From Hyphobacterium sp. (GTDB taxonomy: Bacteria > Pseudomonadota > Alphaproteobacteria > Caulobacterales > Maricaulaceae), in contig NZ_OZ245930.1 in NCBI RefSeq assembly GCF_965229905.1, forward strand, positions 2,407,327 to 2,471,326: DNA of 64,000 nt. The letters run 5' to 3'. The translations under genes were made by a program, and so were the position numbers. The notes under the pieces were generated by a model. It ran no database searches and had not been told where the DNA came from. It saw only the letters and a list, made by a program, of their open reading frames with translations. Positions 4,026-41,930 of the stretch are shown one piece after another (position 1 is the first letter of the stretch; each line of letters begins with the position of its first letter).

Positions 4026-4618
4026 TATCGACCTCCCATTGATCGGACTTCGGCATGGCGCGGGCACTCTATCAAATGATCGTTCACCATGCCGACCGCC
4101 TGCATGAAGGCATAGACGATAACAGGTCCGCAGAATTTGAAACCCCGCTTCTTCAGGTCCTTCGACAGCGCCTCACTTAGCGCCGTCTTGGCGGGAACTT
4201 CAGACATTTGCGACCAGATATTCTGAATCGGTTGACCGCCGATGAATTCCCAAAGGTATTCCGAGAAGTCTTCCCCGTTATCGCACATGTCCAGCCAGAT
4301 CCGCGCACCGCCAATGGCCGCCTGGATTTTGGCGCGCGAGCGGATGATGCCCGGATTGGCGAGCAAGCGGTCAATGTCGTCATCACGATAACGCGCAACC
4401 TTTTCGGGATCGAACTGGCTGAAAGCTTCGCGGATCGTTTCGCGCTTGCGCAAGATCGTTATCCAAGCCAGCCCGGCTTGCATACCGTCGAGCACAAGCT
4501 TCTCCCACAGCGCGCGCGAGTCATATTCGGGCACGCCCCATTCGGTGTCGTGGTAACGGGCATAGAGTGGATCATCGTCCGGCGCCCAGGGGCAACGGCT
4601 CAGCGTGGGTGCGGTCAT
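4025..4618 (-). CDS. tag: DNA-3-methyladenine glycosylase I
   Basis: Canonical Tag N-terminus (RCPWAPDDDPLYARYHDTEWGVP), a length near 190 aa, and a C-terminal Cys/His motif (DHLIECPRH). Confidence 0.9.
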   Translation of the reverse strand: MTAPTLSRCPWAPDDDPLYARYHDTEWGVPEYDSRALWEKLVLDGMQAGLAWITILRKRETIREAFSQFDPEKVARYRDDDIDRLLANPGIIRSRAKIQAAIGGARIWLDMCDNGEDFSEYLWEFIGGQPIQNIWSQMSEVPAKTALSEALSKDLKKRGFKFCGPVIVYAFMQAVGMVNDHLIECPRHAEVRSMGGR

Positions 4619-4663
4619 GAGGGAGCTTTAGCGGCCTCATCGCGCCAAGGCGAGAGCCGGCTT

Positions 4664-5440
4664 TCAGTCGTTGGAAGGCAATACGATGTCGACCAACTTG
4701 CCTTCGACAGTCGGCGCGGCCCCTGCGTTCGCAAGCCGGTCGGTACGAATGCGGGCGATGGCGTGTTTCCCATCGGCAGACGTCAGTTGGCCGATGATTA
4801 TGTCGCCGGCCTTGATATCCTGGCCTTGATCCAGCGGGCCGGACTGACTGACGATTAGAACTGAACGTTTTCGAATCGTACCACGCCGCTTCATGCGAGA
4901 CAGAACCTCTTGGCCAATGAAGCAGCCTTTTTTCCAGGCGATACCGCCGTAAAGATCGAGATTTACGTCGGTTGGAAATACCTCGGCTTCGCCATAATCG
5001 CGACCGAATGCAGGCACTCCCGCAGCGATTTCCCGGCCCACCTGAACAGCCGATCCATCGGAGCTCGCCTCTGGTGCTTGAATTTTGCGTCGCGGCAAGG
5101 CGCCGGACCGCGGGTCGGCTTCACCGGATCCGACCAATACGGCATGTTCCGCCGACACATCAATCTGCACATCGGCGCGCAAGCGGTAGAGGGAAAGTCG
5201 CTTGACCAAGCTCTCGGCGACTCCATGCCAGATGTCGAGGAAAACACCGTTCTCGCGGCCATGGATCAGAAAGTCGGCCAATATCTTGCCTTGCGGCGTT
5301 AGCAAGGCACCCGTGCGGATTTCGCCGGCGGAAAGCCCGCCCATATCGGTTGTGATCACACGCTGCAGGAAGTCGTGCGTATCCTTGCCCGTAATGGTGA
5401 TCACGGATCGGTCAGAAAGGATTGTGTCGGGCGCGGCCAT
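4664..5440 (-). CDS. ygfZ: Folate-binding YgfZ/CAF17 family protein (Fe-S cluster repair/tRNA modification associated)
   Basis: Conserved KGCFIGQE motif and GcvT-like fold signatures. Start chosen at the internal ATG 5440 (MAAPDTILSDRSVITITGKD), which avoids overlap with the divergent GT9 gene. Confidence 0.85.
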   Translation of the reverse strand: MAAPDTILSDRSVITITGKDTHDFLQRVITTDMGGLSAGEIRTGALLTPQGKILADFLIHGRENGVFLDIWHGVAESLVKRLSLYRLRADVQIDVSAEHAVLVGSGEADPRSGALPRRKIQAPEASSDGSAVQVGREIAAGVPAFGRDYGEAEVFPTDVNLDLYGGIAWKKGCFIGQEVLSRMKRRGTIRKRSVLIVSQSGPLDQGQDIKAGDIIIGQLTSADGKHAIARIRTDRLANAGAAPTVEGKLVDIVLPSND

Positions 5441-5504
5441 GCATGGGATATGGCATTGAGGCTGCCGCTGGCCAAGGGGGCGGGCATGAGCTAATCCGCT
5501 CGAC

Positions 5505-6464
5505 ATGAAGCGCATCCTCTTCATCACCTCGACACGGATCGGGGACGCGGTGATCAATTCGGGCGTGTTGGATTATCTGGTGCGCCAGTATCCGGAAGCG
5601 CGCGTGACCATCGCCTGCGGACCGCTGGCACAGCCAGTGCTGGAGCATTCGCCCGGTCTTGAACGCCTGATTATCGTCCGCAAAAAGCCGCTCGGTTTGC
5701 ATTGGTTGGGATTGTGGCGCCGTGTGGTAACCCGGCACTGGGATCTGGTCGTCGATCTGCGCGGATCCGCCATCGCTTATCTGTTGCGCGCACGTCAGCG
5801 GGAGGTGCTGAAGCGAACGCGCGTCAAAATGCACAAGGTGCGCGAAGCGGCCGGCGTGATGCGGCTCGATCCACCGCCGGCTCCGCGCATCTATCTGCCC
5901 GCCGACGCCCGCGAACGCGCCCTTCAATTGTTGCCGCCCGGCCGCGAGTATCTCGTTGTCTGCCCGTCTGCGAGCTTGCCGTTCAAAATGTGGCCGGCGA
6001 GCAATTTTGCTGACGTGGTGAAGGCACTCGTTTCGCCCGGCGGCGCCATGGCAGGAGCGGGCGTCGTGATCGTTGGCGGTCCCGGCGATGAAGAACACGC
6101 GATGCCGATAAAGAACATACTTCCAGACGCCGGTGTGCTGGATTTGACTGGCAAACTCTACTTGTCCGATGTCGCCGCAGTCGTCGAACGCGCGCGGTTG
6201 TTCATCGGCAATGATTCCGGCGTGATGCACATTGCTGCGGCCATGGGCGCGCCGACACTCGGTTTGTTCGGGCCGTCCGACGAAATGCTGTATGGTCCAT
6301 ACGGAGACAAGTGCGCGACCGTTCGCGGGCCGCGCGGGTTGGAGGCGACGCTGTCGGAGTTTCCGAACTGGCGGCAGCATCCAACGAGTCTTTTGGAGGA
6401 TTTGCGGGTGCCGATCGTAATCAAAGCCGCAGAGAAATTACTAGAGCGCACGGAGGAAATATGA
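5505..6464 (+). CDS. Glycosyltransferase family 9 (heptosyltransferase-like)
   Basis: N-terminal ILFITSTRIGDAV and C-terminal GNDSGVMHIAAAMGAPTLGLFGPS are typical of ADP-heptose:LPS heptosyltransferases. Confidence 0.85.
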   Translation: MKRILFITSTRIGDAVINSGVLDYLVRQYPEARVTIACGPLAQPVLEHSPGLERLIIVRKKPLGLHWLGLWRRVVTRHWDLVVDLRGSAIAYLLRARQREVLKRTRVKMHKVREAAGVMRLDPPPAPRIYLPADARERALQLLPPGREYLVVCPSASLPFKMWPASNFADVVKALVSPGGAMAGAGVVIVGGPGDEEHAMPIKNILPDAGVLDLTGKLYLSDVAAVVERARLFIGNDSGVMHIAAAMGAPTLGLFGPSDEMLYGPYGDKCATVRGPRGLEATLSEFPNWRQHPTSLLEDLRVPIVIKAAEKLLERTEEI

Positions 6465-26807: not shown

Positions 26808-27542
26808 GTGACGAAAACCCGGCTCGACCTATATCTTGTCGAGCATTGCGGATTTGAAAGCCGGGCGCGGGCGCGCGAGGCGATCACGGCCGGGCTTGTG
26901 TCGATTGACGGTAGAGTCATAACAAGGCCCTCGGCGGCCGTGACCGATGGTGCACTGGTCGAAGCCAAGCCCTTGCATCCCTATGTCAGCCGCGCGGCGC
27001 TGAAACTGGCGGGTGCGCTTGACGCATTTGATGTCGAAATTGCCGGCAAGGACTGCCTTGATATCGGTGCGTCAACCGGTGGTTTCGTGGAGGTATTGCT
27101 GGCGGCGGGCGCCCGAAGGGTGATTGCCGTCGATGTCGGCACAGGGCAGCTGCACGCACGGCTCCGGGACGATGAGCGCGTGACATCTCTGGAAGGACAG
27201 GATGCGCGGGACCTCACCGCGGAACAGGTTTGCCAGCCGGCAATCATTACCTGCGATGCCAGCTTTATCGGCCTGGCGAAAGTGATCGAGCGCCCGCTTT
27301 CGCTGGCCGCCGATCACTGCGACCTGATCGCTTTGTTCAAGCCGCAATTCGAGGTCGGACGGCTGGCCGTCGGAAAAAGCGGCATTGTCAAAGACAACGC
27401 CGCCCTTCAGGCGGCGCTGGAACGGTTCCGGATCTGGCTGAACGGCCGTTACGGATTCGAGATTTGCGGAATAATCGACAGCCCGATTTCGGGCGGGGAC
27501 GGAAACAGAGAATTCCTTATCCACGCCCGGAAACGTGGATAA
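26808..27542 (+). CDS. tlyA: TlyA family rRNA (cytidine-2'-O)-methyltransferase
   Basis: S4 domain (RLDLYLVEHCGFESRARAREAI) and FtsJ-like SAM motif (CLDIGASTGGF). GTG start at 26808. Confidence 0.85.
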   Translation: MTKTRLDLYLVEHCGFESRARAREAITAGLVSIDGRVITRPSAAVTDGALVEAKPLHPYVSRAALKLAGALDAFDVEIAGKDCLDIGASTGGFVEVLLAAGARRVIAVDVGTGQLHARLRDDERVTSLEGQDARDLTAEQVCQPAIITCDASFIGLAKVIERPLSLAADHCDLIALFKPQFEVGRLAVGKSGIVKDNAALQAALERFRIWLNGRYGFEICGIIDSPISGGDGNREFLIHARKRG

Positions 27543-27550
27543 GGTTATCC

Positions 27551-28240: not shown

Positions 28241-28316
28241 GGCAGAACTCCGTTCTCTAGGCCGGGTTTTCCGGCGTCTGTTCAAGATTTACGCCATTCG
28301 CGATGAGCCCCGGATG

Positions 28317-28350
28317 AACAAAAAGCCGGCTCCCATTCAGGAACCGGCTT
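28317..28350 (-). terminator. Putative rho-independent terminator after the RGG-protein gene
   Basis: On the minus strand: GCCGGTTCC-TGAATG-GGAGCCGGC (one mismatch), followed by TTTTTGTT. It lies about 25 nt downstream of the stop at 28373. Confidence 0.5.
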
Positions 28351-28372
28351 TCTGCTTGTCTGCCGCTTGAGC

Positions 28373-29644
28373 TTATTGGTGGCGGGCGACCTGCCAGCGG
28401 CCATAGCGGTCCTGGCACATGCGGACTTCGTCGATCACGAAGCTGCCGTCCGGCATGTAGATCTCCGCATCCCCCCAACGGCACCGCCGGCCGCCATAAT
28501 GGTAATAGTCGCGGGCCACCACGACGCCCCGCACACCCGTATAGGGATTGTGCCAGTAGTACGGGCTGCCGTGCGTGAACGAGTAGTTGACGGCATAGTG
28601 GAACTGGCCGCGATCGCAATCGTTCAGCGCGGAACCGAGGCCGGCCCCGATAAAGCCGCCAACGATCGCACCCGCCGCATCATCGTCCGCAACCGCGACC
28701 CCGAAGATGGCGCCGAGCAGTGCGCCGGCGAGGATCTGGTCGCCGTTTGAACGGCAGCCGCGGTCGTAATAGCGGTAATTGTAGCGGTCATAGCCGTAAT
28801 CATAGTAGCGCGTGTGATAGCGCCAGGAATGGCGCGCCGGCACGCGATAGCTGCGATAGTAGCGACGCGCGTCATGACGGCCGTTCACATATCCGCGGCG
28901 GTAGGCGCCGTGATACGATCCACGCGTCGCGCGGCGACCGTCGCGATAGCCTTGGCGATATCCACCGCGCGTCGTATGGCGACCATCGCGATAGCCGTGG
29001 CGATATCCACCGCGGCGGCCGTCATATAAGCCATTACGGTAAGCATTCTGCCGTCCGCCACGGCCGCGATAACCGTCACCGCGCCCGCCATGACCGCCGC
29101 GATAGCCGTCGCCCCGGCCACCTCTGCCACCACGATATCCGTCGCCCCGGCCACCACGTCCGCCACGATATCCATCACCGCGGCCTCCACGTCCGCCGCG
29201 CGTGCCATGGCCATCGCCGCGATTTCCGCCGCGTGAGCCGAAATCGCGTATGTCCGCGTGGTTTACGCCGCCGGTTTCATTAGGCAGGACCGGCACCGTC
29301 CGGCGACCGCCGCCACCAGCACCATTGCCGCGGCCGCCCCGGCCACCGCGGGCGCCGTCACCCCGTCCGCCTTGACCGCCGCGAGCACCATCGCCGCGGC
29401 CGCCGCGGTTACCGCCGCGAGCACCATCGCCGCGGCCGCCACGGTTACCGCCGCGGGCCCCGCGATCCTGGGGTTCACCGACCTGGCCTCTGGCGATATC
29501 GCGCCGGTCCTGCAGATTTGCGCCGCGCAACTGGTTTTCTGCTTGTTGCACAGCCGCTTCCGCCTCGGGCGCATCGATCGCGAACACAAGCGATACCGCC
29601 AAGCTGGATGCTGCAATCAGGCAGGAATTCTTGAAATTGAGCAT
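28373..29644 (-). CDS. Secreted RGG/RGD-repeat protein with Arg/Tyr-rich region, glycine zipper and Cys-containing C-terminal domain (423 aa)
   Basis: ATG 29644 is preceded by GAGGAGAGG and gives a signal peptide (MLNFKNSCLIAASSLAVSLVFAIDAPEAEA). Repeats GGNRGGRGDGAR x2-3 and RGGRGGRGDGY x4. An R/Y tract (GYRHGYRDGR...RYYDYGYDRYNYRYYDRG). Glycine zipper ILAGALLGAIFGVAV...GAIVGGFIGAGLGSAL. C-terminus CDRGQF...YYWHNPYTGVRGVV...CRW...VRMCQDRYGRW. Confidence 0.8.
   Translation of the reverse strand: MLNFKNSCLIAASSLAVSLVFAIDAPEAEAAVQQAENQLRGANLQDRRDIARGQVGEPQDRGARGGNRGGRGDGARGGNRGGRGDGARGGQGGRGDGARGGRGGRGNGAGGGGRRTVPVLPNETGGVNHADIRDFGSRGGNRGDGHGTRGGRGGRGDGYRGGRGGRGDGYRGGRGGRGDGYRGGHGGRGDGYRGRGGRQNAYRNGLYDGRRGGYRHGYRDGRHTTRGGYRQGYRDGRRATRGSYHGAYRRGYVNGRHDARRYYRSYRVPARHSWRYHTRYYDYGYDRYNYRYYDRGCRSNGDQILAGALLGAIFGVAVADDDAAGAIVGGFIGAGLGSALNDCDRGQFHYAVNYSFTHGSPYYWHNPYTGVRGVVVARDYYHYGGRRCRWGDAEIYMPDGSFVIDEVRMCQDRYGRWQVARHQ
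29068..29199 (-). repeat. Four imperfect in-frame 33-nt tandem repeats encoding RGG(R/H)GGRGDGY
   Basis: Plus-strand units: gataaccgtcaccgcgcccgccatgaccgccgc / gatagccgtcgccccggccacctctgccaccac / gatatccgtcgccccggccaccacgtccgccac / gatatccatcaccgcggcctccacgtccgccgc. Confidence 0.85.
29381..29452 (-). repeat. Two near-identical in-frame 36-nt tandem repeats encoding GGNRGGRGDGAR
   Basis: gcgagcaccatcgccgcggccgccgcggttaccgcc versus gcgagcaccatcgccgcggccgccacggttaccgcc, a single-nucleotide difference. A more degenerate copy lies immediately before, at about 29348-29380. Confidence 0.85.
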
Positions 29645-29747
29645 GGATTGCCTCTCCTCTCGGGATAGCCGCGAAGCGCGACCCATTGCCGGAAGGTTAA
29701 CGAAGCCGCCATGACCCTAACATGAACGCCTGGTTCAGGTCCGGCGG

Positions 29748-41658: not shown

Positions 41659-41735
41659 TGGTCGGAGTAGCAAGATTCGAACTTGCGACCCCCGCCTCCC
41701 GAAGACGGTGCTCTACCAGGCTGAGCTATACTCCG
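41659..41735 (-). tRNA. tRNA-Pro (anticodon CGG)
   Basis: Minus-strand sequence CGGAGTATAGCTCAGCCTGGTAGAGCACCGTCTTCGGGAGGCGGGGGTCGCAAGTTCGAATCTTGCTACTCCGACCA folds as a cloverleaf by hand. Anticodon loop is TTCGGGA. CCA is encoded. Confidence 0.9.
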
Positions 41736-41855: not shown

Positions 41856-41930
41856 TGGGGCGTCGCCAAGTGGTAAGGCATCGGTTTTTGGTACCGACAT
41901 TCCCAGGTTCGAATCCTGGCGCCCCAGCCA
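41856..41930 (+). tRNA. tRNA-Gln (anticodon TTG)
   Basis: TGGGGCGTCGCCAAGTGGTAAGGCATCGGTTTTTGGTACCGACATTCCCAGGTTCGAATCCTGGCGCCCCAGCCA is very close to E. coli tRNA-Gln(UUG). CCA is encoded. Confidence 0.9.

Follow-up and report, generated by a model that had tools for sequence, protein, structure and literature searches.

We describe here a gene of Hyphobacterium sp., carried on the reverse strand of a 64,000-nucleotide stretch of its genome (contig NZ_OZ245930.1, positions 2,407,327 to 2,471,326; this whole stretch is termed the window), that is predicted to encode an exported protein rich in RGG tripeptides, and we define the family to which it belongs. The hallmark of this family is a long region of low complexity, rich in Arg and devoid of Lys, that lies between a signal peptide and a glycine-zipper hairpin, and of which the RGG repeats are only a genus-specific flavour. 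A scan of genomes retrieved loci from 80 species-representative genomes (82 loci enter the context counts), the named genomes being those of Hyphobacterium, Maricaulis, Oceanicaulis, Glycocaulis, Marinicauda and Alkalicaulis, all Maricaulaceae. In every full-length member the region, 190-350 amino acids (aa) in length, is of low complexity, with an Arg content of 15-41%, a Lys content of 0% and a net charge that is positive throughout (+7 to +54). The mature sequences of the family include 4 Lys among 27,340 residues (0.015%) versus 21% Arg, and the mature protein of the window has none; Lys accounts for 2.4% of residues in other long open reading frames (ORFs) of the window and for 0.26% in a tandem paralog described below. 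This exclusion reaches into the folded C-terminal domain as well.

The composition of the region changes between genera. It is built of RGG, GNRGG, RGD and RGE in Hyphobacterium, of RREARRED-type Arg/Glu/Asp sequence (RRE/RRD) in Oceanicaulis, of Gln, Arg, Ser and Pro in Glycocaulis, and of RDR, RPD and PGR in Maricaulis; no RGG occurs in the region in genera other than Hyphobacterium. An initial annotation of the gene had taken the RGG repeats as a hallmark of eukaryotic glycine- and arginine-rich (GAR) domains, a view that gives way here to that of one local flavour of an Arg-rich, Lys-free region with no GAR homology. It had also regarded the expansion as unusual and uncharacterised; we found it neither characterised nor annotated, but it is no oddity of a single protein, an Arg-rich region being present in all members.

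The reading frame and its public records

Public collections lack the 423-aa product and hold only a 171-aa C-terminal fragment from Hyphobacterium sp., titled "hypothetical protein" or "surface antigen", which begins at an internal GTG (Val253, or residue 267 when counted from an upstream ATG at 29686). No strong ribosome-binding site precedes this GTG, unlike the start proposed here, ATG 29644 (Table 1), and an alignment of upstream sequences places AGGAG at the equivalent position in relatives, whose start Met is likewise the equivalent of ATG 29644. The in-frame ATG at 29686 would yield a longer ORF but without a comparable ribosome-binding site, and is unlikely to be the true start. The mature product has a computed mass of ~42.8 kDa and a pI of about 10.6. 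The intrinsic terminator that follows the stop codon has a folding energy of -40.5 kcal/mol (z = -4.7), with none of 200 shuffled sequences as stable.

Three lines of evidence argue for the long frame as a real gene that is translated. When the repeat region is aligned by codon with that of a relative (L014), 26, 28 and 105 differences fall at positions 1, 2 and 3, respectively, and 79 codon changes are synonymous versus 45 non-synonymous, a pattern indicative of purifying selection. In 71 of 72 complete loci (70 identified by script and one, L018, by eye; eight further loci run off the contig) the zipper is preceded in frame by a signal peptide, at a distance of 188-379 aa (median 310), although the sequence between signal peptide and zipper is unrelated from genus to genus; L074 is the sole complete locus without one. 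Finally, a product of only 171 aa would be left without an export signal, which is at odds with its four invariant Cys and its membership of an exported superfamily. A different true frame, which had been named as a possible undoing of the initial annotation, is not what was found, third-position bias backing the frame proposed.

If the public annotation were right, only the 171-aa product would be made, and the upstream repeats would be non-coding or read in another frame. Such a view can draw on the records themselves, on a wrong-frame gene of 265 aa called over the repeats (4207-5004) in the closest complete genome (L001; family locus 4161-5516), and on the presence of ORFs in alternative frames. 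In the window, wrong-frame ORFs overlapping the RGG gene lie at 28367-28750 (+), 28885-29214 (-) and 29258-29668 (+), and these appear coding to a GC-frame heuristic; a crude GC-frame caller also chose wrong-frame ORFs over the repeat region. GC at codon position 2 is high in the RGG gene (0.58) owing to its Gly (GGN) and Arg (CGN) codons, which is probably why gene callers go astray here. With the behaviour of gene callers accounted for in this manner, and with codon bias, in-frame signal peptides, the unexported character of the short form and the strong ribosome-binding site at ATG 29644 all on the side of the long frame, we give the public annotation next to no chance of being correct.

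Protein layout and the Arg-rich, Lys-free region

The order of domains proposed initially, a Sec signal peptide, RGG low complexity, an Arg/Tyr tract, a glycine zipper and a Cys-containing globular end, was upheld (Table 1). The predicted signal peptide has an h-region of mean Kyte-Doolittle hydrophobicity 2.43, and its n-region, h-region and AP-x-A-x-A cleavage motif are common to all genera of the family. It contains no lipobox: the signal ends AEA/A, and its sole Cys (KNSC-LIAAS) is embedded in the h-region and not preceded by a hydrophobic stretch. A lipobox is likewise absent in all 70 relatives checked. There follows a low-complexity region of ~265 residues (aa 31-296) composed of Arg, Gly, Asp, Asn and Tyr, with a net charge of +37 and a pI of 11.4; Gly, Arg and Tyr contribute 102, 71 and 35 of the 423 residues of the whole protein, and its one Lys is in the n-region of the signal peptide. 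At the end of this region is the Arg/Tyr tract, predicted by AlphaFold2 with low to moderate confidence (predicted local distance difference test, pLDDT, 30-60), of which the final ~40 aa (SWRYHTRYYDYGYDRYNYRYYDRG) show sequence conservation between genera.

The zipper hairpin (C-RSNGDQ-ILAGALLGAIFGVAVA-DDDAA-GAIVGGFIGAGLGSALN-D-C) comprises two helices of hydrophobicity 2.46 and 1.31 and is bracketed by the invariant C297 and C343. Four Cys are invariant in the family, the other two being located in the C-terminal domain, which is confidently modelled as a 4-5-stranded antiparallel sheet with one helix packed against it. The placement of two Cys on either flank of the hairpin suggests a disulfide staple formed in the periplasm.

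Two arrays of RGG/RGD repeats occupy the first part of the low-complexity region. The repeat region of the initial annotation is real but is split between the arrays by a non-repetitive island of 25 aa; the description of some 170 residues as almost only Arg, Gly, Asp and Asn was too strong, these four residues making up 76% of aa 57-230. The 12-aa and 11-aa repeat units match those found by Tandem Repeats Finder, namely a 36-bp repeat (2.2 copies, 97% matches) encoding GGNRGGRGDGAR, with the array 1 unit reading G-A-R-G-G-N/Q-R-G-G-R-G-D, and a 33-bp repeat (4.2 copies, 80% matches) encoding RGGRGGRGDGY. Direct counting agrees on eight RGD tripeptides (at aa 71, 83, 94, 142, 155, 166, 177 and 188). 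The translation further contains 18 overlapping RGG, some with the tri-RGG or di-RGG spacing of 0-4 residues, as in RGGRGGRGDGYRGGRGG (the definition of this spacing being taken from general knowledge). In composition-preserving shuffles of aa 56-200, RGD occurred 1.06 +/- 0.97 times versus 8 observed, and RGG 6.2 +/- 1.9 times versus 16; the observed values were reached in none of 20,000 shuffles. These copies are not independent events, however, because they result from tandem DNA duplication of one unit.

Comparison of relatives indicates what the RGD tripeptide represents. It is found in 1-10 copies in Hyphobacterium relatives, and most other genera have between 0 and 3; repeat units that are homologous read RGE, RGN, RND or GND, the homologous position being D, E, N, S or Q, and in the closest complete genome the whole of the first array has RGE. 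RGD is therefore a by-product of a unit consisting of Arg-Gly plus one acidic residue. Close Hyphobacterium relatives differ in repeat number and share a stable composition (R 20-25%, G 19-35%, D 7-12%); in this clade the region lengthens and shortens by slippage of the 33/36-bp repeats.

Amid this turnover the only well-conserved spot in Hyphobacterium is the LPNE[ST]GG sequence of the island. The motif is kept as [LVM]PNE[ST]GG in Hyphobacterium relatives (L001, L004-L010 and L014), and the island of deeper branches reads [IV]P[ND]E.(G)G. This PNE-type island may be a short linear motif. Its resemblance to a sortase signal (LPNETGG) was considered and ruled out by the wrong spacing and the want of a hydrophobic tail after it.

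With eukaryotic RGG/GAR domains, such as those of FUS, nucleolin, fibrillarin and LAF-1, the Hyphobacterium region has in common its composition, tri-RGG spacing and interspersed Tyr. Sequences of this type are expected to be disordered and to have affinity for polyanions. The region differs from GAR domains in its separate origin by local repeat expansion, its predicted extracytoplasmic location, the Asp in each repeat, and a flavour that gives way to RRE/RRD or to Gln-rich stretches in sister genera; nor did a domain scan of the RGG protein match any RRM or KH domain. A homology search with aa 60-252 gave 8000 word candidates, none with E <= 1e-3, these being removed by the correction for composition bias. 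A literature search found nothing on PF16998 (the C-terminal domain family discussed below) or on exported bacterial RGG proteins. The resemblance to GAR domains is one of convergent composition and not of homology.

An eukaryote-like protein, one that binds host integrins through RGD or separates into phases with RNA in the manner of FUS and nucleolin, would account for the tri-RGG spacing and for eight RGD where about one is expected by composition. Binding to integrins, the adhesive role raised in the initial annotation, is unsupported since RGD is unconserved and stems from tandem DNA repeats and since its source is a marine bacterium of the Caulobacterales, free-living or alga-associated. 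As to RNA, the signal peptide would place the region outside the cytoplasm, no RNA-binding domain was found, and other genera have no RGG at all. We judge either activity very improbable.

Table 1. Features predicted at the RGG gene locus, in coordinates of the window.
Feature	Positions	Strand	Basis or description
Tandem paralog, 229 aa	27551..28240	-	WP_421785933.1, exact match, "hypothetical protein [Hyphobacterium sp.]"
Second copy of upstream element, TTGTTCATCCGGGGCTCATCGC	28300..28321	-	before paralog; position weight matrix (PWM) match
Intrinsic terminator hairpin	28312..28355	-	17-bp stem then U-tract; after stop codon of RGG gene
Coding sequence of RGG-rich protein (predicted export)	28373..29644	-	ORF and translation; 423 aa + stop
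Folded C-terminal domain, aa 344-423	28376..28615	-	two invariant Cys; AlphaFold2 pLDDT 85-90
Glycine-zipper helical hairpin, aa 297-343	28616..28756	-	invariant columns
Arg/Tyr/His/Gly tract, aa 201-296	28757..29044	-	alignment
RGG/RGD array 2, aa 141-200	29045..29224	-	33-bp repeat; R+G+D+N 87%, net +10
Non-repetitive 25-aa island, aa 116-140, TVPVLPNETGGVNHADIRDFGSRGG	29225..29299	-	between the two arrays
RGG/RGD array 1, aa 57-115	29300..29476	-	36-bp repeat; R+G+D+N 85%, net +9
Predicted Sec signal peptide (signal peptidase I, SPase I), aa 1-30, MLNFKNSCLIAASSLAVSLVFAIDAPEAEA / AVQQ	29555..29644	-	n-region, h-region, cleavage motif
Shine-Dalgarno-like sequence, GAGAGGAGAGG	29651..29661	-	6 nt 5' of ATG 29644
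Conserved upstream element, GCGTTCATGTTAGGGTCATGGC	29708..29729	-	before RGG gene; PWM match

Relatives, tandem paralog and shared upstream element

The link to glycine-zipper and 17-kDa surface antigen proteins that had been suggested for this gene found support in a marginal match to the profile of PF16998 (17kDa_Anti_2). This profile scored 23.6 bits against the full-length protein, short of the gathering threshold of 26.6, and 26.8 bits against the isolated C-terminal 127 aa, and it matched 13 of 15 family members at E <= 0.01. The glycine zipper is visible as a GxxxG pattern (GALLGAIFG...GAIVGGFIGAGLG) but stays below threshold with the Pfam glycine-zipper models Gly-zipper_Omp and Gly-zipper_YMGG, the window protein reaching 19.3 bits against a cut-off of 25 and 18.7 bits against one of 28.9, with E-values of about 1e-3; among the same 15 members, at E <= 0.01, PF13441 (Gly-zipper_YMGG) matched nine, PF13488 (Gly-zipper_Omp) five and PF05433 (Rick_17kDa_Anti) four. 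NCBIfam had no match for the protein, and a sequence-profile search of the Protein Data Bank (PDB) returned nothing meaningful. Interrogation of 5.8 billion proteins with the repeat-free C-terminus yielded 19 clusters, with Hyphobacterium or Oceanicaulis as the only named sources, and an exhaustive profile search retrieved 10 representatives at E <= 1e-30 and 1421 at E <= 1e-3; among the 150 matches listed, 115 of 149 new representatives were of <=210 aa. The family thus defined appears to be a Maricaulaceae-specific branch of the glycine-zipper/17-kDa-surface-antigen superfamily. One typical member (L027), with an N-terminus nearly identical to that of L025, is found on a 1,882-bp contig labelled Synechococcus sp. 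BA-132 (NZ_JAYGIB010000147.1); this contig is probably from a co-cultured heterotroph and the gene not one of Synechococcus.

Several known systems share parts of this design. Proteins of the 17-kDa antigen type (PF16998 together with PF05433, "Glycine zipper 2TM") have the same zipper hairpin followed by a small Cys-containing alpha/beta domain; P0038, a short classical form, passes both models. They usually measure 150-200 aa, and their zipper follows directly on a lipobox or short signal; unlike them, the RGG protein has an SPase I signal, about 265 additional Arg-rich low-complexity residues, a conserved Arg/Tyr tract, and two Cys around the hairpin. SlyB, YfgH and OsmB of Enterobacteria have in common with it the GxxxG two-helix hairpin and, as a possible further likeness, regulation by envelope-related systems; they are predicted to lie in the outer membrane, which glycine-zipper lipoproteins stabilise, and a stabilising role under envelope stress has been proposed for them (bioRxiv 10.64898/2025.12.22.696046). 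They differ in possessing a lipobox and in having no counterpart of the long cationic region. As compared with SlyB, the RGG protein gives no detectable fold match, and ring oligomers are not in evidence for it.

A third set of relatives (P0048, P0057, P0061, P0072 and P0082) fuses the same zipper and C-terminal module to an N-terminal extracytoplasmic module that is variable; here the N-terminal part differs in being folded, as one or two RcnB domains, and in containing Lys. RcnB is a domain of periplasmic Ni/Co homeostasis. Another superfamily relative, P0065, bears a low-complexity extension of Gln, Gly, Asn, Arg and Asp. The zipper and C-terminal module seems to serve generally as an anchor at the C-terminal end of extracytoplasmic regions that vary.

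In 74 of 82 loci the tandem paralog is the next gene downstream of the RGG gene and has the same orientation. Its product is laid out as signal peptide, Cys, first zipper helix, a cationic Arg/His/Tyr loop, second zipper helix and Cys, after which come an acidic Tyr/Asp tract and a C-x20-C C-terminus. The two families align by hhalign (probability 97.6%, E 2.7e-12) over a segment that starts at the second zipper helix and runs through to the Cys pair at the C-terminus. In 64 of 65 orthologs the Tyr/Asp tract, with about 15 Tyr, has a net negative charge, and this charge, opposite to that of the RGG protein, suggests a possible partner.

Each of the two genes is preceded by a copy of a conserved element (Table 1) with the consensus cGTTCAT-N5-G[CG]TCA[TG] on the coding strand, followed ~10 nt on by a TA..nT motif. 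Before the RGG gene it takes the form of two G[TC]TCAT direct repeats with an 11-bp period, preceded by TGAAC-N5. The exact pattern was found in 81 of 82 loci, confined to the same two positions, and a PWM scan of the 64-kb window revealed no further copies. The element is probably an operator of the response-regulator type or a promoter element, as judged from its pattern: two direct repeats of 11-bp period beside a promoter element are typical of OmpR/PhoB-type regulators, hence the operator reading. Its invariant TCA-N8-TCA cores, co-directional with both genes, fit the motif T[G/C]A-N8-T[G/C]A of CenR, an essential envelope regulator of alphaproteobacteria whose regulon consists mostly of exported proteins (PMC9275681). 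CenR is a lead to the putative regulator and not an assignment, and it weighs against it that the motif specifies only six bases. A Pho box was considered and rejected, only the TCAT cores being in common. A scan for the sigma-70 consensus detected no promoter, and patterns for EcfG (GGAAC-N16-CGTT), CtrA (TTAA-N7-TTAA) and Caulobacter sigma-70 were not found upstream.

Neighbouring genes vary between genera: in Hyphobacterium aroC lies upstream and tlyA, dxs and ispA downstream, and in Oceanicaulis the neighbours are lgt and a ctpA-like gene. Between the paralog and the convergent tlyA-like gene of the window (26808-27542, +), a hairpin with a 13-bp stem (27515-27544) is likely to be a shared bidirectional terminator. 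An Rfam scan of the window found only two tRNA genes and no leader or riboswitch 5' of the RGG gene; the tRNA genes (RF00005, 63.1 and 62.5 bits) are divergent and 120 bp apart, at 41662-41735 (-) and 41856-41927 (+).

Proposed role in the cell envelope

We tentatively propose that the protein is exported by Sec and acts, through its zipper, as a membrane-anchored polycationic tether that binds anionic polymers of the envelope. After cleavage of the signal peptide, the disulfide-stapled hairpin would enter a membrane from its periplasmic face and would leave the C-terminal domain and the polycationic region on one side of it; the analogy with SlyB, YfgH and the 17-kDa antigens makes the outer membrane the likeliest candidate. 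The Arg-only polycation (+37 here, +7 to +54 in the family) would then bind through contacts of guanidinium with phosphate, carboxylate or sulfate, candidate partners being lipid A and core phosphates, anionic phospholipids, peptidoglycan carboxylates and acidic polysaccharides. The net role would be to tether or stabilise the envelope electrostatically and not to act as a sequence-specific ligand, and the regularly placed acidic residues may ease Sec export of the polycation. Binding of polyanions is the most plausible function for the Arg-rich region, since a charge that is positive throughout the family, and is carried by Arg alone, speaks for binding over mere spacing. Avoidance of cross-linking by L,D-transpeptidases, or guanidinium-specific binding, are ideas for why Lys is excluded.

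Export is supported by the superfamily relatives, which are lipoprotein or Sec-signal forms. A cytoplasmic Arg-rich region was considered and rejected: it clashes with the conserved AxA cleavage motif and the invariant Cys pairs, and also with the even number of hydrophobic helices that separate the region from a domain which in relatives is extracytoplasmic.

A number of points weigh against the proposed tether. The lack of a lipobox leaves the route to the outer membrane unexplained, and on this defining feature the analogy with SlyB fails. Export through Sec of a polycation of +37 is expected to be difficult. The AlphaFold2 model of the hairpin is of low confidence (pLDDT 30-45), and a Foldseek search of the PDB (entries to April 2026) gave no match at E < 0.001, the best being weak NTF2-like folds. 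The divergence of flavours among genera (Gly-rich; ER-rich and possibly helical; Gln-rich) would also fit a pure spacer, and simple electrostatic binding would be weakened at marine ionic strength.

The region might instead lie outside the cell, as an adhesive of the surface or matrix that glues to extracellular DNA (eDNA), acidic or sulfated polysaccharides of the bacterium itself or of algae, a holdfast, or minerals. A positive charge carried only by Arg is suited to binding sulfate and phosphate, the composition is rich in Arg, Tyr, Gly and Asn, and relatives are titled surface antigens; moreover, Hyphobacterium strains occur with cultures of diatoms and Symbiodiniaceae (PMC7661000, PMC9101544). 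Yet neither a secretion-system gene nor a holdfast gene is among the neighbours (aroC, tlyA, dxs, ispA), gene context differs between genera, and relatives with periplasmic RcnB in the equivalent position point to the periplasm. We consider an adhesive role unlikely.

The tandem gene pair raises the prospect of an assembly of two proteins, in which the polycation would engage the acidic Tyr/Asp tract of the paralog by charge and cation-pi contacts, the two together building a membrane-located hetero-oligomer, gel or condensate. The conservation of the pair, the homology of the two proteins, the upstream element common to both genes, and the pairing of a Tyr-containing, almost always negative tract with an always positive one are all in keeping with this, but the charges are very unequal (about -6 versus +20 to +50) and a strong terminator divides the genes into two transcription units, and such an assembly seems to us rather improbable. 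At a similarly low level of confidence, the Lys-free Arg/Gly/Tyr region could form a condensate or gel of the envelope or surface with an anionic polymer, candidates for which are lipopolysaccharide, eDNA, polyphosphate and sulfated algal polysaccharide, or with the paralog tract. Were this to be the case, Maricaulaceae would possess a protein-based envelope or adhesive layer whose chemistry had been re-invented in each genus (RGG, RRE, Q/R), and an exported bacterial polyelectrolyte of the RGG type would exist in nature.

An inert spacer or entropic brush, for which only length and disorder would matter in positioning the anchor or excluding macromolecules, is consistent with the variation of sequence and flavour between genera and with the lengths found, from 190 to 350 aa, and the shifts in repeat number among close relatives. 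A spacer would need neither the net positive charge of every member nor Arg without Lys, and would not account for the purifying selection on the region; this reading is doubtful and slightly less probable than an assembly with the paralog. A contact-dependent bacteriocin like the two-protein glycine-zipper system CdzC/CdzD of Caulobacter (PMC5380434) is brought to mind by two adjoining zipper genes in a member of the Caulobacterales and by a weak match to Bacteriocin_IIc (E 0.54), but is hardly credible given the much larger size of both proteins, their Sec rather than type I secretion signals, the want of a transporter or immunity gene in the Hyphobacterium and Oceanicaulis neighbourhoods, and the core-gene-like presence of the pair in every Maricaulaceae genus examined (80 genome loci).

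Irrespective of the precise role, a whole conserved family of marine Caulobacterales is shortened in public records by its signal peptide and 200-350 residues, and because of this truncation proteome-wide surveys of disordered or exported bacterial proteins would overlook it. The conserved paralog and shared operator make the system tractable in cultivable strains of Hyphobacterium, Maricaulis and Oceanicaulis. Regions of the RGG type have been studied so far mainly within eukaryotic cells; the present family offers a natural experiment in the evolution of low-complexity sequence, in which sequence and flavour turn over between genera while a richness in Arg, a positive net charge and the near-total absence of Lys are constant. 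That these three attributes are held fixed points to a guanidinium-specific physical function in the envelope.

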